Positions 4,001 to 47,977 of a stretch of DNA of 64,000 nucleotides are shown here, piece after piece. A program made the position numbers and the translations under genes. The number at the start of each line of letters is the position of its first letter. Positions within the stretch are counted from its first letter, which is position 1. Below the pieces are notes generated by a model that was not told the DNA's origin, ran no database searches, and worked only from the letters and a program-made list of their open reading frames with translations. Source of the stretch: Thermomicrobiales bacterium (lineage in GTDB: Bacteria; Chloroflexota; Chloroflexia; Thermomicrobiales; UBA6265); assembly GCA_049646645.1 (NCBI GenBank), contig JBARWF010000051.1, forward strand, positions 18,227 through 82,226. The letters run 5' to 3'.

Positions 4001-5620
4001 TCAGGGGGCGGTGCTGACTGGCCGCCGTCGTTCATGCGGCAGGATGGCAACCCCGGTGGTGATGAGCTCCGCGACCGCACTGGTTGCCGTGCGCAGGGCG
4101 CCCCGCAGGACGGACAGACTGTCGGACATGGCGAGTTCGGCGGCGGGAATCAGGGTGCCGGCCGCGGCATCAAAAGCGAGCCCTCCCTCGCTGTCCATCA
4201 CCCGGTGCAAGGCGACCTCTGGGCTGGATGTCCCGCCGTTCGTCACGAGTTGCCGGAATGGAGCCTCCAGCCCGCACGCCATGATCTCCGCGCCGAAGCG
4301 CTGATCGCTCAGATCCAGTGATGTCTGGTGCTGGTCGACAGCGGGACGGCACGCGAGAAGGGCCAGCCCGCCGCCCGGAACGGTTCCCGCCCCGATGATC
4401 TCAGGCAGGATCCGCAATGCCCGCTCGACGTGGCGACGTTTCTCGTCACGTTCGGCATCGGTCAACCCCCCAAGCTGGAGAATGCCGCTTCCGTTGACAA
4501 GGCTCGCGAGCCGCTCTCGCAACCTGAGCGTCTGGTCCCGATCCGTGGTGCGCATGAGTTTGGTGCGGATGTCGGCCATGCGCTCCTGAATCGCGGCCTG
4601 ATCTCCACCGCCGTCGAGGATGACCATGCCATCGCGTTTGAGGACGATCTGGCGAGCCGTTCCCAGCCACGATGCCTGGAGTGCAACCGGTGGGTAGCCG
4701 CGAGTCGTCGAGATTAGGTCAGCCCCGGTCGCAAGGGCGATATCGGTGAGTACCTGATGTCGCTCGGCTCCGGTCGTTGCAGGAGATACCACGTAGGCGG
4801 CGATCGTTCCCCGCGCGACGTTAAGGTTCAGGAGGTCCTGGGCCTTGCTGCCGAGCTTCGCCCCGACGATGACAAGTGGGCGCCGGTTCCGGCCCTCCGC
4901 GATGGTTTCGAACGTCCGTAACATGTCATTGGCCTCAATCACCTCGTCATCGGCAACGAGCACGCTCGGGGAATCCAGGACCAGGGAGATGTTTCCTGCG
5001 GGATGTGACGGAGAGGGGGCACTTTTCCAGTACCTGCCATCGACATAAAGTCTGTCGAGGTGGGGCTGCGCCATCATCTCGAGCCGAATCCCGGCCTCCT
5101 GGCCGAGGACATCAAGCATTTCGGCGAGAACCTCGCTGATATCGGGATAGGACAGGATCGAGGCGATGAGCTGCGCGGTCGAGGCGGAATCGATCGGCTG
5201 GCGCTGGGCCTCAAGGGCGTCGATGACCACCGGCAATGTCGATTCCATGCCGAGCCTGAGCATCAGGGGATCGATTCCGGCGGCGATCAGGGTATTGGCT
5301 CGTTCAACCATCGCGCGTCCGATCACCGCGGCAGTGGCCCCGCCATCCCCGAATTCCTCATGGACCCGCCACACCATATGACGGAGTTGCATCGCGCCGG
5401 TGTTGCGGAGTCGGTCCGTGATTTCCACGACGCGGCGAACGACGATCCCTGACGTTGACAGCATTTCGACGGAATTGCCGTTGGCATGCCAGATCGGACC
5501 GCTGCTGGGTCCCAGCGTCACGGCGAGGACTGCCGCGAGATCACAAAACCCCTGTGACATTTCCTGCAAGGCCCTTGGCGCAAAGGCAATACCGCCGTGA
5601 TGGTCAAGATGATTGCGCAT
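4001..5620 (-). CDS. Divergent GroEL/Cpn60-family chaperonin paralog
   Basis: 539-aa ORF collinear by eye with GroEL (TLGPSSG, GDGGATAAV, VPGGGLAL, DSLSVLRGALRTA). No C-terminal GGM tail and no adjacent groES. Confidence 0.8.
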   Translation of the reverse strand: MRNHLDHHGGIAFAPRALQEMSQGFCDLAAVLAVTLGPSSGPIWHANGNSVEMLSTSGIVVRRVVEITDRLRNTGAMQLRHMVWRVHEEFGDGGATAAVIGRAMVERANTLIAAGIDPLMLRLGMESTLPVVIDALEAQRQPIDSASTAQLIASILSYPDISEVLAEMLDVLGQEAGIRLEMMAQPHLDRLYVDGRYWKSAPSPSHPAGNISLVLDSPSVLVADDEVIEANDMLRTFETIAEGRNRRPLVIVGAKLGSKAQDLLNLNVARGTIAAYVVSPATTGAERHQVLTDIALATGADLISTTRGYPPVALQASWLGTARQIVLKRDGMVILDGGGDQAAIQERMADIRTKLMRTTDRDQTLRLRERLASLVNGSGILQLGGLTDAERDEKRRHVERALRILPEIIGAGTVPGGGLALLACRPAVDQHQTSLDLSDQRFGAEIMACGLEAPFRQLVTNGGTSSPEVALHRVMDSEGGLAFDAAAGTLIPAAELAMSDSLSVLRGALRTATSAVAELITTGVAILPHERRRPVSTAP

Positions 5621-6064: not shown

Positions 6065-6904
6065 ATGGTGAGCAGCAGGAACGACGGCGCGGTATTGATC
6101 GGCGCCTCATCCAGAAGTGACTAGGATCTCTTCCACCCACCAGGCACCAAATCGGCCGACGAGCTCCCTTTCTACGCCCGGCACTTCCGATCGTCGAGGT
6201 CAACACCACCTACTGCCGCATTCCCGCCACCAAATTGGTCCAGGGCTGGGTCGAGCGCATGCTGGACTGCCTCGTCTTCGACGTGATGCCACCATGTGAG
6301 CTGACGAGCACGCCCGAGACGCCGCGGGGGGAGGCGACGGAACCGGACGCCGATGTGGCAAGCGCCTTCGCCGAGGCGATCTCCCCCCCTGGTGGACGCC
6401 GGCAAGCTCGGCGCCATCACCTTCCAGTTCCCGCCCTCGTAACGCAACACCGCGGAGCATCAGGCGTACCTGCGGCTGCTGCCCGAGCTCCTCCCGGACC
6501 TGCCGCTGGCCGTGGAGTTCCGGCGGCGCGACTGGCTGAACCCCGAGCATGCGGACGACACCCTGGCGCTGCTGGCGGAGGCGGGCCTGAGCTACACGAT
6601 GGCCGACGAGCCGCAGCGGGGAACGGGCAGTGTGCCCCCGATGTATGGGGTGACCAATCCCAAGCTGGCGATCGTCCGCTTTCACGGGCGCAATGCCGTC
6701 CGCTGGTACCGTTTCTCAGGATCGAGCAAGGACCGTTTCGACTGGGACTACACGCCCCAGGAGTTGGGGGAGTGGCTGCCGAAGCTGCGGCAGGCCCAAT
6801 CCGAGGCCGAGCGGGTCCATGTCTTCTTCAACACCAACAAGGACGACCAGGGACCAAGCAACACGACTTTGCTGATGGAGCAGCTCGGCCTGTCACGTCC
6901 ATAG
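6065..6904 (+). pseudogene. DUF72 (UPF0759) family gene, disrupted
   Basis: A full-length ~280-codon DUF72 reading can be rebuilt (VLIGASS.., LPFYARHF/PIVEVNTTY.., GKLGAITFQFPPS, LAVEFRRRDW, VRFHGRN.., VFFNTN). This requires reading through TAG 6122-6124 and TAA 6440-6442, and correcting a -1 shift near 6187 and a +1 shift in the C7 run 6383-6389. Confidence 0.8.
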
Positions 6905-6963
6905 CGACTATTCCCACGCCCAACTTTTGATGGCCCGCGCCGTCATTCATAGCGCTCTACGCT

Positions 6964-8115
6964 TCACGACCGGGTCATGATCGCCCCGTCCCGTCGCTCC
7001 CAACCGGGCTGGAACAGGCGCAGAAAATGGCGGTCGGCATAGGGGTATTTGCTCGCCTCTTCATGGTGGAGCGTGACTCCAAATCCCGGACCATCGGGGA
7101 CCTCGATGTAGCCATCGACGATTGCGACCGACCCGCTCAACACCTCGCGACTCCACGGCACAAGGAAGTCATCGAAGCATTCCTGAATCAGCATGTTGGG
7201 CAGGGTGGCACAGACATGCGTGTTGATCACCGTCGTGAGCGGACTCTGGGCGTTATGGGGAGCAACGAAGGCCTCGTAGGCGTCCGCCAGCGCGGCCGCC
7301 TTGACGAGCCCAGTGACGCCACCACAGTTGAGGATCTCGGGCTGGATGACGTCGATCACCCGGGTTTCCAGGAGCTGGGCAAACTCAGACGGGCGCTTCA
7401 GACGCTCGCCGGCCACGACGCGCACCGGGATCGCTCTCGCCACTTCGGCGGTGGACGCCGCTTCGGTCGACATCACCGGCGTTTCAAACCACATCGGCCG
7501 ATAGTCGGCGATGGCGCGCCCCACCTCGATCGCCGTCGCTACCGAGAAGCGGTCATGTCCCTCGATTAGGAGATCGACCCCATCGCCGACAGCATCCCGG
7601 ACCGCACCGATGATCGCGAGCGAAAGATCGAGATCCTGACGCTCGATAAAACGATAGGCGTTGCCAAAGGGGTCGAACTTGAGCGCCGTGTAGCCCATTC
7701 CCGCGACCTCGGCCGCCCGCTCGGCGAAGAAGTGAGGATCCCGCGGCCCCTGATACCAGCCGTTGGCGTAGGCGCGGATTCTTGGGCGCAGCGTGCCTCC
7801 CAGCAGCTGCCAGACCGGCACGTTGAGAGACTTGCCGAGAATATCCCAGCATGCCATCTCGATGCCGGACATGGCGGAGTTGGTGTGCAGGAAGATCCCC
7901 TTGTAGAGGCTGTCCCAGATCGCGCCGATGTTGCGCGGATCCTGTCCGAGGATGAGCGGCTTCATCTCGTGAACGGCGGCCTCGGACGGGCGTGTGCTCA
8001 GGCCGCTTGTGGCTTCCCCCAGCCCGGTGATCCCCTCGTCGGTCTCAACCTCGACGAAGAGCCAGTTCTTCCAAGGGTTACCGACGACCGTGGTCTTGAT
8101 ATCAGTAATCTTCAT
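6964..8115 (-). CDS. Enolase-superfamily sugar-acid dehydratase (mandelate racemase/muconate lactonizing family, galactonate/mannonate dehydratase-like)
   Basis: 383-aa ORF. MKITDIKTTVVGNPWKNWLFVEVETDEGITGLGEA N-terminus typical of the D-galactonate dehydratase family. Its ATG overlaps the upstream stop (ATGA). Confidence 0.9.
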   Translation of the reverse strand: MKITDIKTTVVGNPWKNWLFVEVETDEGITGLGEATSGLSTRPSEAAVHEMKPLILGQDPRNIGAIWDSLYKGIFLHTNSAMSGIEMACWDILGKSLNVPVWQLLGGTLRPRIRAYANGWYQGPRDPHFFAERAAEVAGMGYTALKFDPFGNAYRFIERQDLDLSLAIIGAVRDAVGDGVDLLIEGHDRFSVATAIEVGRAIADYRPMWFETPVMSTEAASTAEVARAIPVRVVAGERLKRPSEFAQLLETRVIDVIQPEILNCGGVTGLVKAAALADAYEAFVAPHNAQSPLTTVINTHVCATLPNMLIQECFDDFLVPWSREVLSGSVAIVDGYIEVPDGPGFGVTLHHEEASKYPYADRHFLRLFQPGWERRDGAIMTRS

Positions 8116-9659
8116 GTTCGCTGCCCTTGTGTTGTCTCTGCGCCCTCTCCGGTCGGAGAGCGGTCACTGTCGTCCGTTGCCGCTGCGGTGAGCCGAACCC
8201 GCATCACCCCCGGCTCCAGGAGAAAGAGCGGCGACCCTGCCGCTTCCGGTCGCTCTCGCCGTACCGGGTGGTGCAGACGCCAGGAGTCACCGTCGAACTC
8301 GCCGAACTCGGCCGCCTCGACTGGGCGGGGGCGCCCGTCGGGCCGCGAGCTTCGGAAGCGGGCACTGAAGCCGCTGCCAATCAGCAAGAACTCGTTGTCT
8401 CCCTCCTGCACAATCATGCCTCGCGCCGCGCCGTGACGATCGTGATACGTCACGACCACGTCACATCCTTCCGCCGCCCAGGCTGTGCCCGTCTCAGTGG
8501 CCTCCTGCACGAAGGTGAAGAGCCTGGGCGTTCCCTGTGCCTTGGCAATCGGCGCCAGCGCCCGGCCGATAGCGACATATGAGTCCCGTAATCAGAACGC
8601 CTGCGGACCCCACTCCCCGCCGACGACATCCACGAGGGGTGGTGCAAATCGGTCTGGATGAGGTGAGTCAATCGACCAGGGGTCGAAGCCGATCGCCCCG
8701 AACTGGCCTAGGGCGTAGTAGACGTTGCGTTCGGCTCGCCCGGCAGGATCGCTGCTGTGCTCAGCAATGTAGAGTGCGCGGTTGGGGCCGCCGTAAATCG
8801 CGCAGAGGCGCTGAAAATCGCGGTACCCGGCACGGTAGATATCCGGAGCGACAAAATCCACATACTGGAGCTGCTCCTGGACAAGCGCAAGGACCTCCGG
8901 CACCGCGCCACCCGCCGGATAGTCCTCGCCCGGGCGCCCGCCGACCTCCGGAGAGAGCCAGACGTTGATGTAGAGGGGAAGCGGATAGACGGACCTCGCC
9001 TCGGCCGCCAGCCGGTCGATATATCCGGCGATCATCGCGGCGCTGAAGGCTTCAGCCGCGTGCGGGCCGTGGCGCGTCTCCCAGCCCTCGGCCACGTAGC
9101 GCGCAGAGCACGCGTCGCAGTAGCAGCGGTCGCTACCGAGCAGCCCCGGCTCGTTCTCCACCTGCACCATGATCACCGTGTGGTCCGTGTCGGTGTTGCG
9201 CAGGTGGGTCATCAGCGCCTTCAGGGCGTCGCGGTCACGTTCCCACGTGGTGGTGGCTTCGGGACAGAGACTGACGAGCGGCTGGCCGTCACGGTCACGA
9301 GCGGGCGGATACGTCTCCGGATGCTCGCGGATGTATGCCGGAGCATAAAAGGCGCAGGCGTTCTTCCAGGTGGCAAACCAGAGCAGCACCAGTCGCAGGT
9401 CATGGGTGCGCGCCTGATGAATCCTCTCGTCGACCATAGTGAAATCGAACGTGCCCGGTTCTGGCTCCACCTCTCGCCAGTAGACCGGCAGGGCGGCGGT
9501 GTTCGCGCCCATCCGCTTTGCCTCCGGGAACAGGGGATTCATCGCCTGGGGGGTGAAGCAGCTATCGCAGTCCCACTGCAGTCCGAGGATCAGGAACGGT
9601 CGGTCGTCGACGAGGAGGCGAGCTTGGCCATCGTCATAGATCAGGGTCGGGAGGCTCAC
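8112..9659 (-). pseudogene. Clan GH-A glycosidase (GH35/DUF5597-type beta-galactosidase-like) with one in-frame TGA
   Basis: ORFs 8592..9860 and 8112..8510 share a frame (offset 480 nt). The only interruption is TGA at 8592-8594 (..GGEWGPQAF*LRDSYVAIGRALAPIAK..). Catalytic VENEPG motif present. GTG start at 9659 overlaps the upstream stop (GTGA). Confidence 0.75.
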
Positions 9660-11023
9660 GCGATCATACTCCTGCCGGCCCGAGCAGACCCGAGGGCATG
9701 ATCGGCGTAGCCTGGAGAGCTCAGTATAGCGTCCATCGTTTCGATGGTCTGCTCCAGGCTCTGGGTGCGGTGGTCGGAAAGCCCGATCTGCGACAGGTAG
9801 CGCGCATCGCCCGTCCGGTACGCGGCCAGCAGGCGTTCCATCCGCAGCCAGGCCGGCCACATCGCCCCCAGCATGATCGATTCGGGCAGGGGATCGACGG
9901 TGATCGGCCGGATACCGCTGCCGTCAACGACGGCCGGTACTTCGACGACAACATTCTCCGGGATCCCGGGCAACGCTCCCCGGTTCGGCACATTAACTAG
10001 GAACTGGCCCCGCTGATCCGTGGCCAGGGCCGTCATCAGGGGGACCATCTGCTCCCCGCTCATCTGCGGCGGGAAGACATCGCTCACCCGCTGGTGAGGA
10101 TCACGCGCGACGTCGTGCATCGCGCTGAGCTTCTGGTTGAGCCTGTCGAGGTAGACCGCCCATCCCTCGGCGGAATCGAAGCCACCCAGCGGCCCCCACC
10201 AGCGCTGCTTGGTCTCCCGGTCACGGTGATACCACCACGTCTCCGCCCAGAGCGCGCGTGACGCGTCGCCGATCGGCAGCAGGCCGTATCGGTGATACAT
10301 GTCGATCGCGGCCGGTGACATCTGGGTCTCGCTAAAATGGGGATTTCAACGCTGCCAGTAGCGCTCGGCGTCCTGTGCGATCCAGGCATCGAGGAGCGGG
10401 TATCCATTCTGGCCATTTACCCGGAACGTGGTCAGCCAGACGATGTGGTTGAAGCCGACCGATTCCAGCGTGGCGCTGCCAAGGTCGAACCCCAGCACTT
10501 CTGCCATCTCCCGGTAGCCGCCGAATGGGCCGTGGCACAGCCCGACAATCTTGATGTCGCTTTCGCGTGTCATGAGCGTACACCCCTCGAAGACGGGGTT
10601 GGACGATTGAATGAGCCAGGCATCGGGGCACAGCTCTTCCATATCCCGGACCACACTCAGCATCAGGTCGAACTGATTCGGCGCCGTCAGGTGCAACCCG
10701 CGGTAGTACCCGGCCCGTTCGCCGAGATCGCGTTCCGCTTCCTCCTGCGGATGTCCACCTGCCAGCGCGGTATTGATCACGAAGTCCGCATCTCGCAGTG
10801 CTGCCCGCCGGTCCGTCGTCTGCTCGATCTTGAGGTCTGCGCCGAGCTCATCGGCGTAACGACGGGCGAGGGTATGCACGATGTCGAGCCGCTCCGCGTC
10901 GATGTCCATCAGCGCGATCGTGCTGCCGTGCAGGGCGCTGGTCAGACAGAGGTCACGGACCAGACCCAACGAGAACTGGGCGCTGCCGGCGCCGATGACT
11001 GCCAGCCGAATTGATGTCGTCAT
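9656..11023 (-). pseudogene. GH4-family glycosidase paralog with one in-frame TGA
   Basis: ORFs 10346..11218 and 9656..10321 share a frame. The junction reads YWQR*NPHFSETQMSPAAIDMY, against YWATPVTRFSDTQLSRAAVDMY in the intact paralog 12812..14296. TGA at 10346-10348. IGAGSAQFS NAD motif, SNPV and GLCHG motifs present. ATG 11023 overlaps the GH2 stop (ATGA). Confidence 0.8.
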
Positions 11024-12822
11024 GCGAATTGCTCCTCCGTGTGGGCACCAATGGTCGCTGGCTGCGCGGTGAAGAGCTTGGTTACGGCGTCCAGGCATGC
11101 GTGCTTCGGCACCCTCGTCGCGCTGACCACGCCGTAATGACCGATCGGATAGGAGCGAACCCGGTTCGGATGCATCGGGTAGTCCTGCCAGCACCAGAGG
11201 AGCGCGCCCACTATCCACGGGCGCTCGGCGAATGTCTCGGCATGCGAGCGGATGGTTGCGGCGTAGCTTTCCTCACTCCAGGGCAATGCGCCGTGATGCC
11301 CGGGAAGTCCGATCCCTCCGAACTCGGTGATCACAATCGGCTTGTCGGGATAACGCCGATGCAGCGCGTCCAGGTGGCCTCCAAGCGCTGACTGGGCATG
11401 AGGGAGATCTTCCAATGTACGCACCGGAGGGTTGGTGTTGAGGCTGCCCTCGTATTCGTTGAGACAGAGCAGATCGTCGTCCTCAATCGCTGCATCGTTG
11501 CCGGTCTGCCAGACGTGATAGAGCATGACGTGTGTGACCAGCCGCGTCGTATCCAGCTCGCGGACGCGATGGATCAGCTCGCGGTTCGTCTGGTCAACTA
11601 ATGGGATCCCGCCCCCGGTCTCGTTACTGACACTCCAGATCACGACACAGGTTCGCGTGCGGTTTCGACGCACCATCTCCCCCACCTGTTGCAAGGCGGC
11701 GTCTACAGGCAGCGGCTCATCCTGTGCTGGCGTTGCCCGCCCCCAGCCCCAGAGAGGAATCTCATCCATCACCATGAGGCCGAGTCGATCGCAGGTCTCA
11801 TAAAATCGATCGTGCTGCGGGTAGTGGGAGGCGCGGACGAAATTGGCGCCGGTCTGCTTGATGGCTCGGAGATCGGCCTGCAACAACTCTTCGTCGTGGG
11901 CCCGGCCCGTCGTGGGGTAGTCCTCGTGCCGGTTGAAGCCGCGGAGCCGGATCGCTTCCCCGTTGAGCAGTAGGCGCGTGCCTGCGGTGACCAGGCGCCG
12001 GATCCCGATGTCGAACTGGCGCGTGTCGATGGTCTCGTCGTCGGACAGGGCAAGGTCGAGCGAATAGAGGCGGGGTTGATCGGGTGACCAGTAATCCACA
12101 GTGGCGAAGTCAAGCGTCGTCGTCCACGCCGTCTCCGCATGCGGCGGGATCTCCACCTCGAACGCGGCGTCCGTATCGTGCATTACCGCCCGCAACTGAC
12201 CGGTCCACTTCGTGTGACTCTCGTTGCGCAAAACCGCGTGCAGGGCGAGGCTGGCCGGGCCGGTACGGCCAGCGACCTTGGGTTGAGGATCGAGCGTCAC
12301 CTCGGCGATGTGCACGTGGGGCTGCCATTCGACAAAGACATCCCGATAGATTCCCCCATAGTTGACCCAACTCAGGCGGGTACCGGGGAGACGGTCCGGG
12401 AGCGAGCGGTTGTCCACGCGAACGACGAGGTGGTTGGGTGCTTCGGGCGCAAGCGCGTGATCGATCCGAAACTGAAAGGGCGTGAACCCGCCCTCGTGCG
12501 CGCCCAGATAGTGACCGTTCAGCCAGACGTCAGCGCGGTAGTTCACCCCATCGAAGTGGAGGTAAGGGATGCCTACGTCTCCGGTGAGCTCGAATGAGCG
12601 ACGGAACCAGACGTAGCCCTCAAAGCCGGCCAGCGCCGGGTCGGCCATATCCCAGCAGGCCGGGATCGTCATTTCCGGCCAGGTCGCATCGGGCGTATCC
12701 GGTGCCATCCAGCCCAGATGCTCACCGAACGCATGGGCGGGGGTGTCCGCAGCATAGCGCCACGAACCGTTCAGGCTCATTCGTGGTCTTGTCTCTCCAT
12801 GGGTGATCGGTTCAGTCTGCAA
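11020..12822 (-). CDS. GH2-family glycosidase (beta-galactosidase/beta-glucuronidase-like)
   Basis: 600-aa ORF. NFVRASHYPQ and WSVSNETG (acid/base NE) motifs and a GH2-like N-terminal sugar-binding region. Alternative start MSLNGSW at 12780. Confidence 0.9.
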   Translation of the reverse strand: MQTEPITHGETRPRMSLNGSWRYAADTPAHAFGEHLGWMAPDTPDATWPEMTIPACWDMADPALAGFEGYVWFRRSFELTGDVGIPYLHFDGVNYRADVWLNGHYLGAHEGGFTPFQFRIDHALAPEAPNHLVVRVDNRSLPDRLPGTRLSWVNYGGIYRDVFVEWQPHVHIAEVTLDPQPKVAGRTGPASLALHAVLRNESHTKWTGQLRAVMHDTDAAFEVEIPPHAETAWTTTLDFATVDYWSPDQPRLYSLDLALSDDETIDTRQFDIGIRRLVTAGTRLLLNGEAIRLRGFNRHEDYPTTGRAHDEELLQADLRAIKQTGANFVRASHYPQHDRFYETCDRLGLMVMDEIPLWGWGRATPAQDEPLPVDAALQQVGEMVRRNRTRTCVVIWSVSNETGGGIPLVDQTNRELIHRVRELDTTRLVTHVMLYHVWQTGNDAAIEDDDLLCLNEYEGSLNTNPPVRTLEDLPHAQSALGGHLDALHRRYPDKPIVITEFGGIGLPGHHGALPWSEESYAATIRSHAETFAERPWIVGALLWCWQDYPMHPNRVRSYPIGHYGVVSATRVPKHACLDAVTKLFTAQPATIGAHTEEQFA

Positions 12823-14296
12823 CGAGTGCCCCTTCCTCCGTACCGGCCAACGCCATGAGCCGGTCGAGGTCGCCGAAACGCTCGCGCAAGCGCGCGTTGA
12901 AGGGGAGGTCGAGCACCGCCTGCATGGCTGCGATCGCCTGCTCGGGGGTACGCGTCCGGTGATCCAGCAGAACCTGATGGAACCAGACTCTGGGGTCGCC
13001 CGTCAGGAAGGTGTCGAGATTCATCTCCATCTCGATGATTTTCGGCGTGATGACCTGGGTCATGAGCCGGCGAGGGAGTGGCGTGGTCCGGATAGGCTTG
13101 ATCCCGTCGCGACCCGCGAGCGCTGGCACCTCGACCACGACATCGTCGGGGATTCCGGCCAGGGCGCCGTGATTCGGGACGTTGACCTGGAAGATCGCTT
13201 GATGATCGTTGGCCAGTGCATCCATCAGCGGCACGATCTGCTCGCCGCTGTGTGCGGGAGGGAACGCGTCGGTAAGCTTCCCCTCGATGTCGGCAGCGGC
13301 CTCCTGAATGCGGGCGAGGTTCTCGTTCATCCTGCTCAGGTAGGTGCTCCAGCCGATCTCCGAATCGAATCCACCCAGTTCGCCGTACCAGCGCCGCTTT
13401 GTCGCGAGATCGCGGTGATACCACCAGCTCGATAGATACTGTGAGCCGCCAAAGCGGGGAGTATCTCCGATCGGGAAGAGCCCGAACATCCGGTACATGT
13501 CAACCGCCGCCCGCGAGAGCTGGGTGTCCGAGAACCGTGTGACGGGCGTCGCCCAGTAGTCGGCGGCGCGCTCGGCGATCCACTCATCGAGCAGGGAATA
13601 GGCATCTTCGCCCCGATAGCGGAACTGGGTCATCCAGATGCAGTGATTGACGCCGGGCGCCTCAAATGCAATGTCACGCTCGTCCAGTCCCAGTGTCTGG
13701 GCGATCTTGCGGTAGCCGTAATGACCGTGGCAGAGCCCGACCACCTTGACGCCGGTCTTCCTGGTCATCAGGGTGCAGCCCTCGAACACCGGGTTGCCCG
13801 ATTGCACGAGCCAGGCATCGGGACAGATCCGTTCCATGTCACGCGCGACGCTCAGCATCAACTCCAGGTTGAGATAGGGCAGCCGCACGCCACGATAGTA
13901 GCCATGCTCCTCCCAGGTGGCGCGTTGCCTCTCCTCGTCGCCGTGGGGCTGCGCGGCCGTATTCACCACGAAGTCGGCGTCCTGGAGCATGACCTCCCGC
14001 TCGAGGGTGGAGGTGAATTGCAGGTCGGCGCCGACCTCGTCGGCGTACCGTCGCGCCAGCCGCTCGATCGCCGCCAGGCGGTCGGCATCGATATCCATGA
14101 AGCAGATGTGACTTCCGGCCAGCCCCCGTGTGAGGCAGAGATCGCGCACGACATTGAGTGAGAACTGTGCGCTCCCCGCCCCGATGATGCCGATCTTGAC
14201 CGCGGTGCGGCCCGTCTTCGGCGTGAATGCGGGCGCGGCGAGGGCAAAGGGCAGTGCTACCTCCGTGTTGGTTGTCATCGTCTTTCGTTGTTCCAT
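12812..14296 (-). CDS. GH4-family NAD/Mn-dependent glycosidase (intact paralog)
   Basis: IGIIGAGSAQFS, SGNPVFEG and GLCHGH motifs. The ORF extends to 14356, but ATG 14296 (MEQRK) has a GAGAGGA Shine-Dalgarno about 9 nt upstream. Confidence 0.9.
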   Translation of the reverse strand: MEQRKTMTTNTEVALPFALAAPAFTPKTGRTAVKIGIIGAGSAQFSLNVVRDLCLTRGLAGSHICFMDIDADRLAAIERLARRYADEVGADLQFTSTLEREVMLQDADFVVNTAAQPHGDEERQRATWEEHGYYRGVRLPYLNLELMLSVARDMERICPDAWLVQSGNPVFEGCTLMTRKTGVKVVGLCHGHYGYRKIAQTLGLDERDIAFEAPGVNHCIWMTQFRYRGEDAYSLLDEWIAERAADYWATPVTRFSDTQLSRAAVDMYRMFGLFPIGDTPRFGGSQYLSSWWYHRDLATKRRWYGELGGFDSEIGWSTYLSRMNENLARIQEAAADIEGKLTDAFPPAHSGEQIVPLMDALANDHQAIFQVNVPNHGALAGIPDDVVVEVPALAGRDGIKPIRTTPLPRRLMTQVITPKIIEMEMNLDTFLTGDPRVWFHQVLLDHRTRTPEQAIAAMQAVLDLPFNARLRERFGDLDRLMALAGTEEGALVAD

Positions 14297-14359
14297 CGTC
14301 TCATTCCTCTCGTTCACCGGATTTGTCCCGTCTTGCCGGGCGCGACGACCGTGCATCCA

Positions 14360-15253
14360 TCATCCCTTCGTGGCCCCGATCACGACGCCGGAGAGGAACT
14401 TGTCCTGGAAGAGGAGGAAAACCACGATCAGGGGAATGGTGACGATCACGCAGCCCGCCATGAGCATGCCCCACGGGGTGAAGAATCCGACCAGTGGATC
14501 CTTGATCGTCGGCAGCATCGCCATGATCGGCCGGTACTTCGGATCGGTGACCACGACCAGCGGCCAGAGATAGTCGTTCCAGCGGCCGATGAAATGCAGG
14601 ATCGCGAAGGCCCCCAGCACCGGCGTCGAGAGCGGCATCACGATCTGCCAGAGCTGTTGCCAGATGTTGGCCCCGTCGAGGCGAGCCGCTTCCAGCAGTT
14701 CGCTGGGCAGGCTCAGCATGTATTGGCGAATCATGAAGAGCCCGAAAACGCTCGCCACGCTCGGGATGATCTGGACCTGATAGCTGTTCAGCCAGCCGAT
14801 GCGGGCGAACATGATGTAGAGCGGAGGCAAGGTCACCTCACCGGGGACCATCAGCGTTGCCAGCAGCATGCCGAAGATCACGTCGCGACCGCGAAAGGAG
14901 AGCTTGGCGAAGGCGAAAGCCGCCATGCCGGCGAGCACCACGGCCAGGATCGTGGAGACCGTGGCGATGAAAACGGAATTGAAGAAGCTGCGAAAAACCT
15001 CGTTGCCCTGATAATTCACCAGTTGACGGTAGCTCTCGAGGGTGATCTGACGCGGCCACCCCGCCGGGTTCTGCAAGACCTCCGTGTTGGACTTGAAGGA
15101 GTTCATCAACATCAGGGCGAACGGGTAGAGCGAGAGCACGACCGTCGCCAGCAGGATGAGATGCGTCACGATGCCGCTGATGCGGGGCCGTCGGCGGGCC
15201 CGCTCCGCGTTTCCGGCGGTTGGAGCGCTGGCCTTGGGCAGAGACGTCACCAT
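14360..15253 (-). CDS. Carbohydrate ABC transporter permease (MalG-like)
   Basis: 297-aa multi-TM ORF with EAA loop LLEAARLDGANIWQQLWQIVMP. Its start overlaps the upstream stop (TAATG). Confidence 0.9.
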   Translation of the reverse strand: MVTSLPKASAPTAGNAERARRRPRISGIVTHLILLATVVLSLYPFALMLMNSFKSNTEVLQNPAGWPRQITLESYRQLVNYQGNEVFRSFFNSVFIATVSTILAVVLAGMAAFAFAKLSFRGRDVIFGMLLATLMVPGEVTLPPLYIMFARIGWLNSYQVQIIPSVASVFGLFMIRQYMLSLPSELLEAARLDGANIWQQLWQIVMPLSTPVLGAFAILHFIGRWNDYLWPLVVVTDPKYRPIMAMLPTIKDPLVGFFTPWGMLMAGCVIVTIPLIVVFLLFQDKFLSGVVIGATKG

Positions 15254-16191
15254 TACAGGTCACCTTCCCGCTCCCGCAGCAGCCGAAACTGAACCAGGGA
15301 GACGACGACGATCGGGATGAAAATCAGCCAGGCCACGGCGGCCGCGGCCCCGAAGTCCGCGCCGCGAAGGTTCTGGTAGAGCTGGTTCATGATCGGTTGG
15401 AACTGCGGCGGTGCCAGGTTATTGCTGAAGAGCAGGTTGGGCTCCGCGAAAAGGCGCATCGAATTGATGCTGATGATGACGAGGGCGAAGAGAAAAGTCC
15501 GGCGCATGAGGGGAATCGTGATCGATCCCATGGTCTGCCAGGCATTGGCGCCATCCACCTTTGCCGCGTCATAGAGTTCCGGGTTGATCGTGGTTAGGCC
15601 GGCGAGAAAGATGACGAAGAACCAGCCGATACTGTGCCAGGAGCGGAGCAGGATGACCGCCAGCCGTCCCCACCAGACGTTCTGATCCCAGGCGATGTGC
15701 GTTCCCAGGACGGCGTTCAGCACGCCAGATTCTGGACTGAAGATGATCTGGAAGATCAGGGCCGCCGCGACCGCGGCCATGACGTTGGGGATGAAGATGG
15801 CTGGCTTGTAAAAGCGCTTGCCGAAGATCGAGCTCGAGTAGACCAGTACCGCGAGCAGGAATGAGAGCACGATAGTGAGCGCGGCGCTGCCGAGCCAGTA
15901 GACGATGGTGTTGGTCCACGACGACCAGAACTGGTGGTAATTAAGCATCCGGTCGTAGTTTGCCGTGCCGATGTACGTGGCTTTCCCGTATCCCCGGTAG
16001 CGGTAAAGACTGAGGACCAGGGAGTAGAGGGCGGGGATCACAAAGAGGATCAGAAAGGAGAATACGAACGGCGCGATCAGCAGGTAAGGGGCGAGGCGTT
16101 CCCAGAATCCACGCCGGATCTGGGGCGCCGTGCGCGCCCCAGTCGTTGTTCGAAATCGCAGCCCCGCCGTCTTTCGCGCGGTCGTGCTCAT
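15253..16191 (-). CDS. Carbohydrate ABC transporter permease (MalF-like)
   Basis: Multi-TM ORF with EAA loop ELYDAAKVDGANAWQTMGSITIP. Start set at ATG 16191 (MSTTARK), downstream of the binding-protein stop; the ORF extends to 16371. Confidence 0.9.
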   Translation of the reverse strand: MSTTARKTAGLRFRTTTGARTAPQIRRGFWERLAPYLLIAPFVFSFLILFVIPALYSLVLSLYRYRGYGKATYIGTANYDRMLNYHQFWSSWTNTIVYWLGSAALTIVLSFLLAVLVYSSSIFGKRFYKPAIFIPNVMAAVAAALIFQIIFSPESGVLNAVLGTHIAWDQNVWWGRLAVILLRSWHSIGWFFVIFLAGLTTINPELYDAAKVDGANAWQTMGSITIPLMRRTFLFALVIISINSMRLFAEPNLLFSNNLAPPQFQPIMNQLYQNLRGADFGAAAAVAWLIFIPIVVVSLVQFRLLREREGDL

Positions 16192-16228
16192 AGCGTTCTT
16201 CCCTGTCTGCGCGGGGTATGCGCGGAAC

Positions 16229-17617
16229 CTAGACCTGCCAGGGATCGCCGATCTGACTCTCCAGATCGTTCTGCAACCCATCGAGCACCCCGTCGACATC
16301 CACTTGACCGGCCGTAAACCGCTGAGACCAGTCGCCGATGAGTGCGATCTCCTGAGCCGAGCGTGGATCAAAGTCGATCCACTTCAGCCGTTCCTGCGCG
16401 GCGTAGACCACCGGGAAGTAGGTCTCCCCGAAGAAATCGGGCGGCCACGGGATCTGGGTGGCCTGGCTGCCGGGCGTGGGCGTCGCCACCGGCTTCGGCA
16501 TCGTCGGCACGATGTCGCGCGCACTCTTGACCACGGTGTTCTGGCCGCTGACCTCGAGCAGGGCCAAGGCTCCTTCCTTGGTCAGGTGGACGGTCGACAG
16601 GAACTCGAAGGCCGCTTCCGGATTCTTCGCCTGCTTGGGAATCACGTAGACCGACCCCCCCGAGTCACTGCCCTGGTTCGAGTCACCGACGGCCGGCCAG
16701 GCGTGCGCTTGCCAGAGCCCCGCCTGCTCGGGGACGTACTGCGGCAGGAACGACGTCATCCACTCGTTGATTAGAGTCGACGCTAGGGTGCCCGAGTCGA
16801 AGGCGGGAGCCCAGTCGGGATCGAAGTCGTCGACGGGGGCGACGAGGTCCGGATTGCGCAATTTGTCAGCGGCCTCGAAAAGCCCACGGAATCCGGGATG
16901 CGAGGTGACCTGGAACTTGCCCGCGTCGCGATCGTAGAAGCTCACCGGGGCGTAGGAGGTAAGGATGTTTTGCAGCCGGTAGCCGGTGAGGCCCTGGCGC
17001 ATGTTGTAGATGAAGGAGTTGGGCAGCTTCTCGTGGAGGGTGAGACCGGCATTGATGAAGTCGTCCCAGGTTTTCACCGCATCGGGGTCGATACCGGCCT
17101 GCTCGAAGAGGTCGGTCCGGTAGAACCACACCTTGGACTTGAGCTGGTTGGGGACGGCGATCACCTGCCCGTCAAATGAGGCGAGCTCGTAGGCGCTCTC
17201 GATGATGTCATCTTTGAAGGGAGCAGTCTTTTCGGTTAGATCGGTCAGCACACCCGCCGCCGCAAACTCGGGGATCTGGATCCGGTTGAAGTGGATGATG
17301 TCGGGGACGTCGTTCCCACCGGCGGAGAGCATCAGGCGGAATTGTTCAGCGACCTCGCCATCTCCCTGTCCGCCGACGATCGGCTCCATGGTGAGATTCT
17401 TGGCGGCGTCTGGCTTGACACGCTGGTAGGCAGCATAGTCCCAATTCACGCCATCAGGGCGGCCCCACACCATCATGCGGAGTTTGGTTGCGCTTTGGAT
17501 TGCTGCCGATCGCGCATTGATGACCGCCGGCGAGACGGTGGCACCAAGGGCGGTCGCTGCGGTGACAGTGGCGGCGGAGGTTAGCAGATGGCGACGGCTA
17601 TAGCGGTTTGCGGTCAT
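16229..17617 (-). CDS. Family-1 extracellular sugar-binding protein of the ABC transporter (Tat signal)
   Basis: 462-aa ORF. Twin-arginine N-terminus SRRHLLTSAATVTAATALGA. Sits upstream of the two permeases. Confidence 0.9.
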   Translation of the reverse strand: MTANRYSRRHLLTSAATVTAATALGATVSPAVINARSAAIQSATKLRMMVWGRPDGVNWDYAAYQRVKPDAAKNLTMEPIVGGQGDGEVAEQFRLMLSAGGNDVPDIIHFNRIQIPEFAAAGVLTDLTEKTAPFKDDIIESAYELASFDGQVIAVPNQLKSKVWFYRTDLFEQAGIDPDAVKTWDDFINAGLTLHEKLPNSFIYNMRQGLTGYRLQNILTSYAPVSFYDRDAGKFQVTSHPGFRGLFEAADKLRNPDLVAPVDDFDPDWAPAFDSGTLASTLINEWMTSFLPQYVPEQAGLWQAHAWPAVGDSNQGSDSGGSVYVIPKQAKNPEAAFEFLSTVHLTKEGALALLEVSGQNTVVKSARDIVPTMPKPVATPTPGSQATQIPWPPDFFGETYFPVVYAAQERLKWIDFDPRSAQEIALIGDWSQRFTAGQVDVDGVLDGLQNDLESQIGDPWQV

Positions 17618-17704
17618 GAGCGAAGACCTTTCTGTCAGACGTAGGCGACGATGTAGTGGTAGGACCCGACAAACGTGGCGCGGATGACAGAGATCGAGTT
17701 GGGG

Positions 17705-18643
17705 TTAGGTCGCCACCTCCTCCCGCGATGCGTAAGCGAGGGGGGCGGTCGTGAAGAAGGTGCTGACATCGGCAAGAATCCGATCCAGCTCGTGATGATC
17801 CAGCGCGTCCAGGGTGCTCATGCCCGGACCCCGCAGGGTGGCGGTGGCGATCACCCCGCGGCGGCGGAGCACCTCCTTGTAGACGGTCGCGCCGTAGAGC
17901 CATTCCATATTGAGCAGGGGAAGAAGCCGGTTGAAGATCTCGCGGGCGCCCTCCTCATCGCCGGCTTCGAGTGCGTTCCAGATGGCGACGTGGACATCCG
18001 TGACCTCGCAGGCCGGCATGGTGCCGCAGGAGCCACGCCGGTACTCGTCGAGCAGGAAACGTCCCGCCATCCCTCCCATGACGCCTTTCAATCGAGGTCC
18101 TGCTGCCTCCAGGATCGCCGTGATGACGTGACCGGGTGGTGAGGTCTCCTCCTTGATGTACTCCAGTCCATCGATCGTCTGGACGAGTTCGGCGAGGAAG
18201 CTGGCACTGAGCGGCGTGCCGATCGGCGCGGGGTAGTTCTGGATGAAGACCGGCAACCCGGCACTTGCCGCGACAACCTGGAAGTAGGTCGTGATTTCCG
18301 CCGGGGAGGCCTTCTTGACGTAGGGTGGCATCGCGATCACCGCGTCCGCCCCGACCTCCCCGGCGTGTCGTGCAAAGAGGGCGGCATGGTGACTCGTGGC
18401 CCCCGTTACCCCGATCACGACGGGGATGCGATGGGCCGCAGTCTCCGTCACGATCTCGGCCACGCGCAGTCGCTCCTGATCGGTCAGGCTGGAAAACTCA
18501 CTGGCGTTGACGGGGCAGACGAGCCCATGGGCTCCCGCCTGGATACAGAACTCAACACAGCGTTGCAGGCTCTCCTCGTCGAGGTTACCCGCGGTATCGA
18601 ACGGCGTGACCGGAATCGTGAACACTCCTCGGAACTGCGCCAT
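17705..18643 (-). CDS. DapA/DHDPS-family class I aldolase (likely 2-keto-3-deoxy-sugar-acid aldolase)
   Basis: 312-aa ORF. GVFTIPVTPFD..GNLDEESL N-terminus typical of the dihydrodipicolinate synthase family. Context with a sugar-acid dehydratase. Confidence 0.8.
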   Translation of the reverse strand: MAQFRGVFTIPVTPFDTAGNLDEESLQRCVEFCIQAGAHGLVCPVNASEFSSLTDQERLRVAEIVTETAAHRIPVVIGVTGATSHHAALFARHAGEVGADAVIAMPPYVKKASPAEITTYFQVVAASAGLPVFIQNYPAPIGTPLSASFLAELVQTIDGLEYIKEETSPPGHVITAILEAAGPRLKGVMGGMAGRFLLDEYRRGSCGTMPACEVTDVHVAIWNALEAGDEEGAREIFNRLLPLLNMEWLYGATVYKEVLRRRGVIATATLRGPGMSTLDALDHHELDRILADVSTFFTTAPLAYASREEVAT

Positions 18644-18813: not shown

Positions 18814-19617
18814 ATGGGTGGAATGAGGGCCGCGAGGCAGCCGGCGGCAAGGAGTCAGACGGTAGAGCGGGCGGCGTCGATCCTGACCTGTTTCAGTGCC
18901 GAGACCCCTCACCTGTCACTGGCGGCAATTGCCGAACGGCTGGGGTTCAATCAAAGCACGGCCTACCGCTATGTCTCGACGTTGGAGGCGGCCGGGCTGG
19001 TCGAGCGCGACAATCGGATGGGTGGATACAAGTTGGGGCCGAGGGTGATCGAGCTCTCGAATGTGGCGCTCAATCAGAATGAGGTGCGCAAGCATGGCCT
19101 GGAAGAAGCGGACCGGCTGCGCGACGAGTTACGGGCGCTGGTTAGTCTAGGCGTGCTCTTCGAGGGAGACGTCCTGCATATCGCGCACGCCGTTCCTGAT
19201 CACTGGCCGCGTTGGCATACGACTGTGGGCCGCCGGGCCGTCGCCCATTGCACATCTCTGGGCAAGGTGCTCCTCGCCGCGCGACCCTGGCCCGAGGTTG
19301 TAGCCCTCATTGAGACGTATGGCTGGCGCCCGTACACTCCGAACTCGATTCAGGATTTTCACCGCCTAGAGCAGGAGTTGGCCGAGGTTCGGGAGCAAGG
19401 CTACGCGATAGATCACGAGGAGCGAAATCGGGGCACGATCTGTCTTGGCGCTCCTATCCGGGACTTCTCAGGTGAGGTGGTGGCCGCGCTCAGCGTCAGT
19501 GCCAAGGTGGACAAGATGCCTCTCGACTCGTGGGTGGAAGTGGCACCCCGGGTCTGCGAGGCAGCTAACCGGATCTCATTCCGCCTGGGCTATCAGCAGA
19601 GTTCGGCATATTTGTAG
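18814..19617 (+). CDS. IclR-family transcriptional regulator
   Basis: wHTH LSLAAIAERLGFNQSTAYRYVSTLEAAGLV plus an IclR effector domain. ATG 18814 is preceded by AGGAG; the ORF opens at 18772. Divergent from the sugar operon across an AT-rich spacer. Confidence 0.85.
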   Translation: MGGMRAARQPAARSQTVERAASILTCFSAETPHLSLAAIAERLGFNQSTAYRYVSTLEAAGLVERDNRMGGYKLGPRVIELSNVALNQNEVRKHGLEEADRLRDELRALVSLGVLFEGDVLHIAHAVPDHWPRWHTTVGRRAVAHCTSLGKVLLAARPWPEVVALIETYGWRPYTPNSIQDFHRLEQELAEVREQGYAIDHEERNRGTICLGAPIRDFSGEVVAALSVSAKVDKMPLDSWVEVAPRVCEAANRISFRLGYQQSSAYL

Positions 19618-20829: not shown

Positions 20830-21204
20830 CTAGAGGGGGAAGTCGTAGCTTCTGTCCGCGGCATCCTCAAGATACCGGGCCAGCAAGGTCACGGTGGCCT
20901 CGACATCACGCTGGCTCGCCATTTCGTTGACGGTGTGGATGTAGCGGGCCGGGACCGAGAGCGTACAGACGGTGACGCCTGATCGCGTCCGCGGGATGAG
21001 CGATGCGTCGGTGCCACCCCGGTTCAGCACCTCCAATTGATAGGACAACCGGTGCTGAGCCGCGATGTCGCGCAGATGGCGGACCAGTCTCGGGTTGCCG
21101 AGCTGCGTGGTGTCCATTACCTTGATCGCCGGGCCCGCACCCAGCCGCGTCACTTCCTGTTGGGAAGCAAGAACCGGAATGTCATTGGCAATCGTCAAAC
21201 TGAT
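20830..21204 (-). pseudogene. C-terminal fragment of an M42-family (FrvX/glutamyl aminopeptidase-like) peptidase
   Basis: Only about 124 codons are recognisable (..LGAGPAIKVMD..YQLEVLNRGGTDAS..LSVPARYIHTVNEMASQRDVEATVTLL..). The N-terminal two-thirds are absent. It abuts the truncated binding-protein pseudogene. Confidence 0.6.
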
Positions 21205-22880
21205 CCTCATTCGTCGGCCATCCCGCCCAATAGGTGGTGTAGTAGATAAACGGGGCGATCGTCTGGAGGGTGGGGATGATCGGCAGGTTCTTGAGAGAGA
21301 TATCCAGCGCCTGATTAAAGACCGCCTTGCTGCTGGGGTCATCGGGATTGACCGTGCCCAGCTGATCGATGACTGCGTCAAGCTCGGGGATCCGGGTTCG
21401 CGTCTGGTTCCCCTGGTTCGCGGCCGTTCCGACCGGCTGGTAGTTGCGGGAATGGAAGTCATCGTAGAGCTGCCCGGGGTCGAACTGCATGCCGCAGATC
21501 CACTGGCTGCTGAGGTCGGACTCGCCGAGCGCCATGGCGTCGCTCCAGCCGGATTCGGCCAGGCCCTTGACCTGGACATCGATGCCGACCTACTTCGCCT
21601 CCGCGGCAAAGCTCTCGCCGATCTTGTACTCGGGGAGGGTCGTGGAGGCGGGGGTGATGCAAGTCAACTGGAGGGGCTTGCCGTTTAGAATGCGAACGTC
21701 CCCCTTCTTGGTCGCACCGATCTGATCGAGCAACGCTTCCGCCTTTGCCGGGTCAAAGGAAAAATCGCATTTTGTCCATGATCTTGGCCGGCGCGCAGGT
21801 CTTCCAGCCTTCATCGTCGGCCCAAGGGAACGTCGCCGGACGGGATTGCGGTTGCCAGATCACGTCGGCCATCGTCAGCCGGTCCATCAGGTAGGACATG
21901 GCCCAGCGGCCCTCGGGTGTTGCAAGGAGACCGGACGGAGAATCCGCGTTGAGATAGAAGCCCGCGGACAGGGATCGGCAAACGACTGACGCACGTTGTC
22001 ACTGGTCTGGGACGCAACGACTTCCTGATTGAGAAAGTCGAAGGCGCCGGCATCGAGATTACCGGAGAGGAACTCCTGAACCGCGGAGTCGACCGGGGCC
22101 TTCCGGACATACATCACGTACCTGCGGCGGAGGGGCAAGCACCGCCTTGTTCCAGTAGTTGGGGCTCTTTCCCACAGGTAATAGAGCTTGGAAGACGAGG
22201 ATTCCTTCAGCGTGTAAGCCCCGGTGTAGACGGGCGGATTGAAGGTGAAGGTGCCCGGATCCTCGTTCTCCCAGATGTGTTCCGCCCGTCTACAGTGGGA
22301 AAAGAACCCCAACTGAGTGAAAACGGGGTATGGCGTTCGTCAGGGTGAAGAGGACGGTCTGGGAATCGAGCGCCGTCACGGAGGCGATATCTCGCTGCAC
22401 GGCCGCCGCTCCGTTCAACGCCGGATTCTGCAACAGCAGGTTCTGTGAGAAGACGATGTCATCGGCGGTATAGGGCTGCCCGTCATTCCAGGTCACCCCT
22501 GATTTTATCTTGACGGTGCATTCCGTGAAGCCGTCATTGTACGTGTAGGAGTCGCCGATCCAGGGGGTGACCTCGCCGTTCAGTAAGTTGGCGTAGAAGA
22601 GGCATTCCCGACAGACCTCCGGGAGCCCGTAAAATTAGAGTTCGCCATTGGGAATAAACGGATTGAAGCTATCCCAGATATTGGTGGGGTCGGCCTCGAT
22701 GATCACGGTTTGTTCGCGCGGCGTCGGGATATTGGCCCCGTTCTGGTCCAGCATCGGTGGCGGGACGGAGGTCTCCGGGCTGGCGGCGGCCATCCGTTGC
22801 ATGCGCGCCAGCAATCCTGTCATGCCGATGGTTGCGCCCGCGACAAGTGAGCGGCGGGAGGTTCCGAGGTCTGTGGCCAT
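21182..22880 (-). pseudogene. Family-5 (peptide/nickel type) ABC substrate-binding protein, heavily disrupted
   Basis: Tat-signal N-terminus (MATDLGTSRRSLVAGATIG; AGGAG upstream of ATG 22880). Homologous pieces are spread over ORFs 22635..22964, 22290..22496, 21887..22312, 21590..21814 and 21182..21535. In-frame TAA at 22635 and TAG at 21590; frameshifts near 22300, about 21900 and about 21765. The C-terminus is deleted. Confidence 0.8.
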
Positions 22881-23706
22881 GGGAGGGTGCTCCTGGCTGC
22901 GCAAAGGAAGATGGCATTGGTGTGTGTACACCGCCACCGCATGTCTTTCGATAGCGTGTGGCAAGCGGTAAGGTGTCCCATGGTGTGCAAGCGAAGCCAG
23001 AGAGCACGGCGCTCGCCCTCAGCATCACGCACAAGCGACGGTCCCCATGGATCGTCGCTTGTGCTCTATCTCTTTGTTTGGCGTGGTGACTATCAGCCGA
23101 TCTGCTTGGATTGCTTGTCCTCGATCGCCGATCGCAGCTTGGCATTAGAATGAATTTCGGCCTTGACCTCCAAGCAGCCGGTCGCCGCAACTGCCTCTCG
23201 TTGACCGCGATTGGCCTTGTACAAGTCTGACGGGGAGGTTGGCCTTCGGGGATTCCGGCTGGGCCAACGCTGTCTCGCCGTCGCAGTCGCTTCAGTCACG
23301 GGAGAGAACAAGTGTGGGAAGTTGGCCAGGAGGTGAGTGGCCTTGTCATCAGTCACTTCGTAGTCGCCCTATCGCGCAAGCGGACATCCTCGCGCGAAAG
23401 AGGCTCCAAAGTTGCACGCGCGTGATGGAACCATACTGAGAAGATGAACCAGTTTGTTCCATTGCAAATTACGCGCAGGGAGCCGCACACGGTGAAGGCG
23501 GCCTTGGTCCCCCTATCGGTCGTTTGCGCGGAGTTCGCGTCAACTGTGACGATTATTGGTATTGGCGGCACCGGGTTCGTCCTTGGCATAGCCTGACGTC
23601 GCCCAATGACGGTTGCCTGCATAGCGCCGACGCAGGTGACCCCCCAGATTCGGGCCCGCATGTGCTGAGCATGAGTTCGAGTAAGGCGATGCTGGTCCGC
23701 TGCTAG

Positions 23707-39204: not shown

Positions 39205-39360
39205 AGCAACATAGCCTTCGGGGATTGGTGAGCATGCCGAGTTATGGCATGCAAGTCCTGACCGGCGGTACAGCCCGCAAGCGCGAGTGGGAGCACGAGC
39301 GCACGATCCGGTGAGACTCCGGAGCCGACGGTAAAGTCCGGATGGGAGAAGGTGTTCATT
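39205..39360 (+). promoter_or_regulatory. FMN riboswitch (RFN element) aptamer
   Basis: CCTTCGGGG..GGTG..AAGTCCTGACCGGCGGTACAGCCCGCAAGCG...GATCCGGTGAGACTCCGGAGCCGACGGTAAAGTCCGGATGGGAGAAGG matches the conserved RFN core block for block (compare B. subtilis ribD leader ..CCGACCGGCGGTA..AGCCCG..GCCGACAGTGAAAGTCTGGATGGGAGAAGG). P1 pairs CCTTC with GAAGG. Confidence 0.9.
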
Positions 39361-39438: not shown

Positions 39439-39572
39439 GTGCCCGGGAACGTTCGTTCGGAGGCGCTTGGTGGGCATGAGGGAACGGCGGCGTTGGCCGG
39501 GGAGCAGTCATGCTCCGCGGTGCCGAGCCGCAGGTTTTTCCTCAGCTTCAACAGGTGCCCGGCAGGGCATCC

Positions 39573-47968: not shown

Positions 47969-47977
47969 AATGCATGC

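Follow-up and report, generated by a model that had tools for sequence, protein, structure and literature searches.

Two adjacent glycosidase genes, each interrupted by a single in-frame TGA, as probable nascent pseudogenes in a Thermomicrobiales sugar-utilisation operon

The DNA considered here is a stretch of 64,000 nucleotides (the window) on contig JBARWF010000051.1 of a metagenome-assembled genome (MAG) of an uncultured Thermomicrobiales bacterium (GCA_049646645.1). Its minus strand carries an operon of nine genes for sugar utilisation (6964-18643), with a gene of the DHDPS family first and a dehydratase of the MR/MLE family last, and within this operon two adjacent glycosidase genes, one of family GH4 (9656-11023) and one of GH35 type (8112-9659), are each interrupted by one nonsense codon, TGA in both cases. 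A preliminary description of the locus had noted these two codons, the lack of frameshifts, the preserved start/stop overlaps between the genes, the protein-like sequence past the stops and an intact GH4 paralog nearby, and each of these observations was borne out, as detailed below. Its interpretation, a very recent nonsense inactivation of redundant glycosidases, with base-call error ranked next and programmed read-through last, is upheld in its ranking and in the recency of the nonsense changes; redundancy is not demonstrated.

The two interrupted genes

The GH4 gene comprises 455 codons and belongs to the NAD+/Mn2+-dependent alpha-glucosidase/alpha-galactosidase type. The sole stop inside its translation is codon 226, a TGA at 10346-10348 on the minus strand ('...AERYWQR*NPHFSETQMSPAAIDMY...', the asterisk being the stop), followed by A (UGA-A), and the two halves share one frame. 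Both Pfam domains of the family are recognized above their curated cut-offs, the N-terminal PF02056 at residues 7-178 (156.7 bits, cut-off 23.2) and the C-terminal PF11975 at residues 189-418 (123.8 bits, cut-off 24.1), and the latter match spans the stop, which places the break approximately 37 residues inside the domain. The alignment puts the motifs VIGAGSAQF and GLCHGP, which we take to be the Rossmann GxGS nucleotide-binding motif and the Cys-His metal-site motif of GH4 structures, in the invariant columns G11, A12, G13, S14, C163 and H164, all ahead of the stop, while the invariant Y243 and D253 are encoded beyond the TGA, and the frame leading to them is thus not uninterrupted. The closest structure in the PDB is AglA (1obb, E = 2.4e-114), and the conceptual protein is 95% identical to a homolog of equal length (P0001, 455 aa). 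In the annotation of the MAG this gene appears as two 'hypothetical proteins', MGB3305589.1 (225 aa) and MGB3305588.1 (221 aa), the locus tags at the broken genes being WBA63_05335 and WBA63_05340. The C-terminal open reading frame (ORF) of 221 aa starts at the first in-frame ATG past the stop, 8 codons downstream (10319-10321, minus), a conceivable site of re-initiation; no Shine-Dalgarno sequence is evident ahead of this ATG.

The GH35-type gene comprises 515 codons from a GTG start, and the sole stop in its translation is codon 356, a TGA at 8592-8594 on the minus strand ('...GGEWGPQAF*LRDSYVAIGR...'), followed by T (UGA-U), again with both halves in one frame. Similarity to GH35 catalytic domains and a C-terminal DUF5597 domain are both present. 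The PDB entries matched are GH35 beta-galactosidases (8faa, 7kmn, 4d1i, 5jaw, with E values of 1e-68 to 1e-64), and DUF5597 (PF18120) is recognized at residues 359-462 with 51 bits (cut-off 23). The N-terminal part matches PF02449 (36.6 bits, cut-off 21) and, weakly and under the cut-off of 27, PF01301 (23.9 bits). Residues 3-333 align to the catalytic barrels of 4d1i and 3u7v, with the invariant E170 and E300 preceding the stop, which falls past the barrel and 3 codons ahead of the DUF5597 match. The conceptual protein is 94% identical to a homolog of equal length (P0121, 515 aa), and DUF5597 is fused in every one of the 120 listed homologs not cut by a contig end; in the window the two domains are not on one polypeptide, the TGA separating them. 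For the part ahead of the stop, the first 355 codons, the MAG annotation gives a 'beta-galactosidase', MGB3305587.1 (355 aa).

The coupling of these genes to their neighbours is preserved. An ATGA joins the stop of the upstream GH2 gene to the GH4 start (11020-11023, minus), preceded by a Shine-Dalgarno sequence GGAGGAG at 11032-11038; a GTGA joins the GH4 stop to the GH35-type start (9656-9659, minus), preceded by AGGAG at 9669-9673; and an ATGA joins the GH35-type stop to the dehydratase start (8112-8115, minus). All three 4-nucleotide overlaps and both Shine-Dalgarno sequences are unchanged in an intact relative represented by a 25.8-kb contig (L001, run SRR28483314), which encodes both P0001 and P0121, and the GTG start is shared by this relative and by a sister strain described below (contig L086).

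As to the proposed redundancy, the intact GH4 paralog (12812-14356, minus) reads 'YWATPVTRFSDTQLSRAAVDMY' at the position matching the GH4 stop, but it is only 52% identical to the broken gene, and in the intact relative both the paralog and the GH4 ortholog are kept, with pairwise ratios of nonsynonymous to synonymous substitution (dN/dS, omega) of 0.07 and 0.10, respectively. The GH35-type gene has no paralog within the window.

Origin, authenticity and age of the stops

The intact relative is syntenic with the window across 12.7 kb at 92.5% nucleotide identity, and the sister strain (run SRR28062783) matches window positions 9313-11089 at 98.2%. The column of the GH4 stop is occupied by Trp in the nearest eight relatives among the 19 closest homologs aligned, and the column of the GH35-type stop by Trp in 16 of the 18 closest homologs aligned. 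At the DNA level the codon is TGG at both sites in the intact relative and TGG in the GH4 gene of the sister strain, and because of this both stops are derived TGG-to-TGA transitions (G to A on the coding strand) on the window lineage. The alignment with orthologs that had been proposed for identifying the ancestral codon thus gives Trp in both cases, and a TGA in the same column, which would have spoken for recoding, was looked for and found in none of the aligned orthologs. The intact relative shares all 16 codons around the GH35-type site, and at both sites the base after the stop (+4) and the flanks were inherited unchanged from the intact ancestor. The GH4 lesion postdates the split between the window and the sister strain (synonymous divergence, dS, of approximately 0.037). 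The run accession of the sister strain belongs to the same series as those of the runs with the broken allele, and intact and broken versions may coexist in one study system.

Two wider scans contributed little. A scan of a genome collection (185,579 species) with the GH35 alignment returned no close relatives of the window gene among the matches listed, the best of which was 70% identical and came from an Anaerolineae MAG, and was of no help for the ancestral codon. Degenerate DNA patterns (TGA in the GH35 motif, TGR in the GH4 motif) had zero matches in JGI metagenome contigs, TGG alleles included, and these scans are uninformative, because no TGG alleles were returned although JGI-derived homologs (P0004, for example) exist, leaving no denominator.

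Both alleles are found outside the MAG, in Logan assemblies, each built separately from one SRA run. Two contigs from two runs carry the GH4 TGA, L084 (SRR28062786, window 9153-12099) and L085 (SRR28062217, window 10065-12715), both matching the window at 100% identity over 2.6-2.9 kb, and the GH35-type TGA is present on one, L082 (SRR28062217, window 6826-10094), a 3.3-kb contig produced by a different assembler and also 100% identical. The gene caller cuts these contigs at the stops, resulting in products of 225, 221 and 355 aa. Full-length proteins with the window's sequence and Trp restored are absent from a collection of 15 billion proteins. It may still be argued that TGG is the true codon of the organism at one site or both and that an error of sequencing, assembly or consensus produced the stops, as the source is a MAG and the GH35-type TGA is found in just one further assembly, which may go back to the reads of the MAG itself. 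Single-base substitutions reaching the consensus are not a typical error of short-read assembly, and, with the identical contigs and the missing Trp-restored versions, we consider such an artefact highly improbable; the base-call error entertained by the preliminary description is effectively excluded.

The patterns of substitution speak to the age of the lesions. Pairwise omega against the intact relative is 0.04-0.07 for the neighbouring genes, 0.20 for GH2, 0.10 for the broken GH4 gene and 0.175 for the broken GH35-type gene. When amino acid changes are polarised by outgroups, the window and the intact relative have accumulated 8 versus 10 derived changes in GH4, and 12 versus 12 in the GH35-type gene. 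Since the split from the sister strain, with the intact relative as the outgroup, the window branch of GH4 has gained, besides the one nonsense change, 6 synonymous and 4 nonsynonymous ones, and the sister branch 5 synonymous and 3 nonsynonymous. Every family-invariant residue downstream of both stops is still encoded. Both lesions are, by these measures, young, because there is no lineage-specific excess of amino acid changes and the invariant residues are still encoded; together with the TGG retained in the sister strain, this agrees with the recency originally proposed.

Two apparent departures from this picture were examined and set aside. An omega of 0.52 downstream of the GH35-type stop could be taken for relaxed constraint, but it is not specific to the window, each lineage having 4 derived changes there, to which 4 unpolarised ones in a non-conserved tail are added. 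Hypermutation is likewise not indicated, with GC-to-AT transitions making up 6 of the 11 changes derived in GH4 on the window branch versus 4 of 8 in the sister lineage.

Operon neighbours, older pseudogenes and other features

The remaining seven genes of the operon, all on the minus strand, are intact. In the order of transcription, they are the DHDPS-family aldolase-like gene (17705-18643), a gene for a sugar ATP-binding cassette (ABC) solute-binding protein (16229-17617) and two ABC permease genes (15253-16191 and 14360-15253), each of these four with omega of approximately 0.04, followed by the GH4 paralog, by the GH2 glycosidase gene (11020-12822), directly upstream of the broken GH4 gene, and, past the two broken genes, by the dehydratase gene (MR/MLE family, enolase superfamily; 6964-8115), with omega of 0.043 against the intact relative. 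Within the operon, pairwise omega peaks at the GH2 gene (0.198), whose length is off by one codon in comparison with the intact relative and whose start region differs; an alternative start is possibly at 12780. A gene for an IclR-family regulator (18823-19617, plus) is divergent from the operon and syntenic in the intact relative.

Synteny with the intact relative stops exactly at the dehydratase stop (6963/6964), and two Logan contigs from different runs (L082 and L083) both terminate at window position 6826, which suggests that the junction just downstream of the operon (6826-6963) is strain-variable or repeated.

Three further genes are disrupted, and more extensively. Directly downstream of the operon is a DUF72-family pseudogene (approximately 6125-6904, plus), its N-terminal half in two frames with a TAA at 6440-6442, and only profile positions 115-216 of 217 in one ORF (6512-6904). 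Another example is a pseudogene of an SBP_bac_5 (peptide/nickel binding) protein with a signal resembling those of twin-arginine translocation (Tat), at approximately 21590-22964 (minus), disrupted by several frameshifts as well as by stops at 22635-22637 (TAA) and 21590-21592 (TAG). Adjoining it is a remnant of an M42 peptidase gene (20830-21609, minus), with only profile positions 190-292, the C-terminal third, in frame. The latter two were reached via the TAA 22635 and TAG 21590 candidates of a six-frame scan, and the decayed stretch at 20830-22964 coincides with a dip in GC content to 0.60-0.62 at 18-24 kb. Overall, about five of the approximately 55 genes in the window are disrupted, and gene decay is clearly active in this lineage, which may be shedding uptake and catabolic functions, because three older pseudogenes are present within 64 kb.

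Other features of the window lie apart from these genes. One is a 539-aa ORF (4001-5620, minus) with a weak, partial match to Cpn60_TCP1 (E = 4e-26, residues 231-521), far below what is normal for GroEL, which may encode a divergent chaperonin-like protein. Another is a flavin mononucleotide (FMN) riboswitch at 39210-39357 (plus, 85 bits), upstream of a gene starting at 39510, and a third is a transfer-messenger RNA (tmRNA) at 47607-47969 (plus), with the tag peptide AKPQLAYAA.

Decay versus decoding, and comparison with known systems

We consider the GH4 and the GH35-type genes to be, most probably, nascent pseudogenes, each hit independently by a genuine and very recent nonsense substitution in the course of ordinary early decay, as part of the broader erosion of genes in this lineage. 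Barring stop misreading, translation must terminate after residue 225 of the GH4 protein and after residue 355 of the GH35-type protein. The GH4 fragment would keep the Rossmann and Cys-His motifs and should be inactive, because the invariant Y243 and D253 and the rest of the C-terminal domain would be lost. The GH35-type fragment would keep the catalytic barrel with E170 and E300 and lose DUF5597, and some residual activity is possible. The genes downstream would probably still be translated from their own Shine-Dalgarno sites despite the interrupted coupling. Traces of the wild-type proteins could arise via misreading of UGA by tRNA-Trp, for which the UGA-A context in GH4 is more favourable than the UGA-U context in the GH35-type gene. 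The two hits fall in adjacent, functionally linked genes that account for 25 of the 100 Trp codons found in the genes common to the window and the intact relative, and such clustering is expected if one step of a pathway has lost its value, and unexpected if TGA is generally tolerated.

Several observations weigh against this interpretation. Selection shows no measurable relaxation specific to this lineage, dN/dS on the GH4 window branch being approximately 0.2, and past the GH4 stop the nonsynonymous and the synonymous changes on this branch number 3 each, which neutrality and constraint fit equally well, the likelihood of these few substitutions being approximately 0.12 under neutrality and under an omega of approximately 0.1 alike; continued function is thus possible. 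The GH35-type stop is known from one separate assembly only, which may share reads with the MAG. Finally, depending on the transition bias assumed, a random nonsense mutation would be a TGG-to-TGA change with a chance of 0.10-0.19 in GH4 and 0.08-0.16 in the GH35-type gene, and the joint chance of two such hits is approximately 0.01-0.03, a coincidence noticed post hoc. GC-to-AT transition bias is universal, and the pairing could reflect chance, this bias, or better survival of leaky nonsense alleles, which do the least harm.

The joint chance also lends some weight to an alternative in which tRNA-Trp misreads both UGAs, in a leaky or regulated manner, and both enzymes are still produced, in smaller amounts that may vary with conditions, the genes being hypomorphs under selection and not pseudogenes. 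UGA is the leakiest of the stop codons, and tRNA-Trp is its near-cognate reader, so that decoding at ancestral Trp codons would restore the wild-type proteins; both genes are free of further lesions, and the dN/dS of the window branch is still low. UGA-A, the context of the GH4 stop, is reported as especially prone to misreading by tRNA-Trp in Escherichia coli, and UGA-U, that of the GH35-type stop, is tight, being associated with low read-through (PMC5289835), and tRNA-Trp variants with a 4-bp anticodon stem increase UGA read-through in bacteria (PMC13092985). Against this, a stop is present in neither column of any ortholog, the only truncated members of the clusters being the MAG's own fragments, and nothing about the stops is conserved; the contexts were inherited and not acquired, and the low substitution counts are equally explained by youth. 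Neither conservation of the stop nor a stimulatory element, as expected of programmed read-through or selenocysteine insertion, was found. Rfam models, including selenocysteine insertion sequence (SECIS) elements, have no match at E <= 1 in 8000-11200, and the predicted RNA structure of the 69 nucleotides downstream of each stop is no better than that of shuffled sequences (z = -0.91 and +0.30). TGA is, moreover, the commonest terminator in the window. We therefore regard selected read-through as unlikely, in line with the low rank that programmed read-through was given originally. A different alternative accepts termination and supposes that the products are split or truncated yet functional, the 355-aa GH35 domain working alone and the two GH4 pieces (residues 1-225 and the re-initiated 221 aa) assembling. 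The position of the GH35-type stop, between the barrel with both invariant Glu residues and DUF5597, the in-frame ATG shortly past the GH4 stop, and the treatment of the pieces as separate proteins by gene callers and by NCBI are all compatible with it. The fusion of DUF5597 in all the complete homologs listed, the position of the GH4 break away from a domain border, the lack of an evident Shine-Dalgarno sequence at the ATG and the lack of a split arrangement in any relative all speak against it, and functional fragments appear improbable.

The remaining alternatives concern the genetic code. Both in-frame TGAs occupy Trp columns, as they would if UGA had been reassigned to Trp in this lineage (a state like that of code 4). 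TGA, however, terminates 27 of the 53 predicted genes of the window, the two internal cases not counted, and both broken genes terminate with it where their orthologs do. The 10 genes that the window and the intact relative have in common contain 100 Trp codons, of which 98 are still TGG and 2, the two stops, differ, versus approximately 12.7 differences expected if TGG and TGA were synonymous (A<->G third-position differences are found at 12.7% of Gln/Glu/Lys sites). Beyond the two stops, the six-frame scan of the 64 kb brought up no in-frame TGA with coding sequence on either side; its TGA candidates at 14360 and 60790 proved to be normal borders between genes or ORFs in alternative frames, of the sort common in GC-rich DNA. 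The tRNA and tmRNA genes of the window are those of tRNA-Arg(TCT), tRNA-Asp(GTC) and one tmRNA; a scan for tRNA-Trp, for a suppressor tRNA and for RNAs related to selenocysteine was negative. The GC content of 60-67% is unlike that of most known lineages reading UGA as Trp. Reassignment is effectively refuted within the window, and its probability for the lineage is negligible. A weaker version, which we consider very unlikely, would be that this free-living, GC-rich Thermomicrobiales lineage decodes UGA as Trp to an appreciable extent, due, possibly, to a loosened anticodon stem of tRNA-Trp (of 4 bp, for example) or to a weak release factor 2 (RF2), and that the two sites are the first footprints of an ambiguous intermediate in UGA reassignment instead of gene death. 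If this were true, TGG-to-TGA changes would be almost neutral in accessory genes whose expression is weak.

Under the reading as nascent pseudogenes, the locus offers a snapshot of the earliest stage of operon erosion, with both an intact sister strain and a 92.5%-identical relative available for comparison. MGB3305587.1, MGB3305588.1 and MGB3305589.1 would be pieces of two disrupted genes and not separate proteins, and in metabolic reconstructions of the MAG neither glycosidase should be counted as functional without evidence. The case would add one more example to a familiar class of events, and its relevance would widen only under the read-through scenario, which is unlikely.

The closest parallel is found in the nascent single-nonsense pseudogenes of bacteria. 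As in these, one premature stop is seen against intact orthologs of equal length, it is lineage-specific and not accompanied by added lesions, the genes are accessory catabolic ones, and older, frameshifted pseudogenes are nearby. The differences are that two adjacent genes of one operon are affected, both by the same TGG-to-TGA change, and that the rest of the operon, including the dehydratase gene, looks intact. Near-cognate read-through of UGA by tRNA-Trp, known from Escherichia coli and Bacillus subtilis (PMC5289835), shares with the present case a UGA at a former Trp codon, one UGA-A site and the possibility of restoring the native protein, but the second site is the tight UGA-U, relatives do not share the stop, and the search for a stimulatory element was negative. 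The codes in which UGA means Trp, those of the Mycoplasmatales and of some insect endosymbionts, along with bacteria possessing tRNA-Trp with a 4-bp anticodon stem (PMC13092985), also have TGA in Trp columns, whereas in the window genes end in TGA more often than in any other stop codon, just 2 of 100 Trp codons have changed, and the genome is GC-rich. As to the enzymes themselves, the closest solved relative of the ancestral GH4 protein is AglA of Thermotoga maritima, and those of the GH35 protein are Bgl35A of Cellvibrio japonicus (4d1i) and 8faa, the window copies differing from these in being interrupted.

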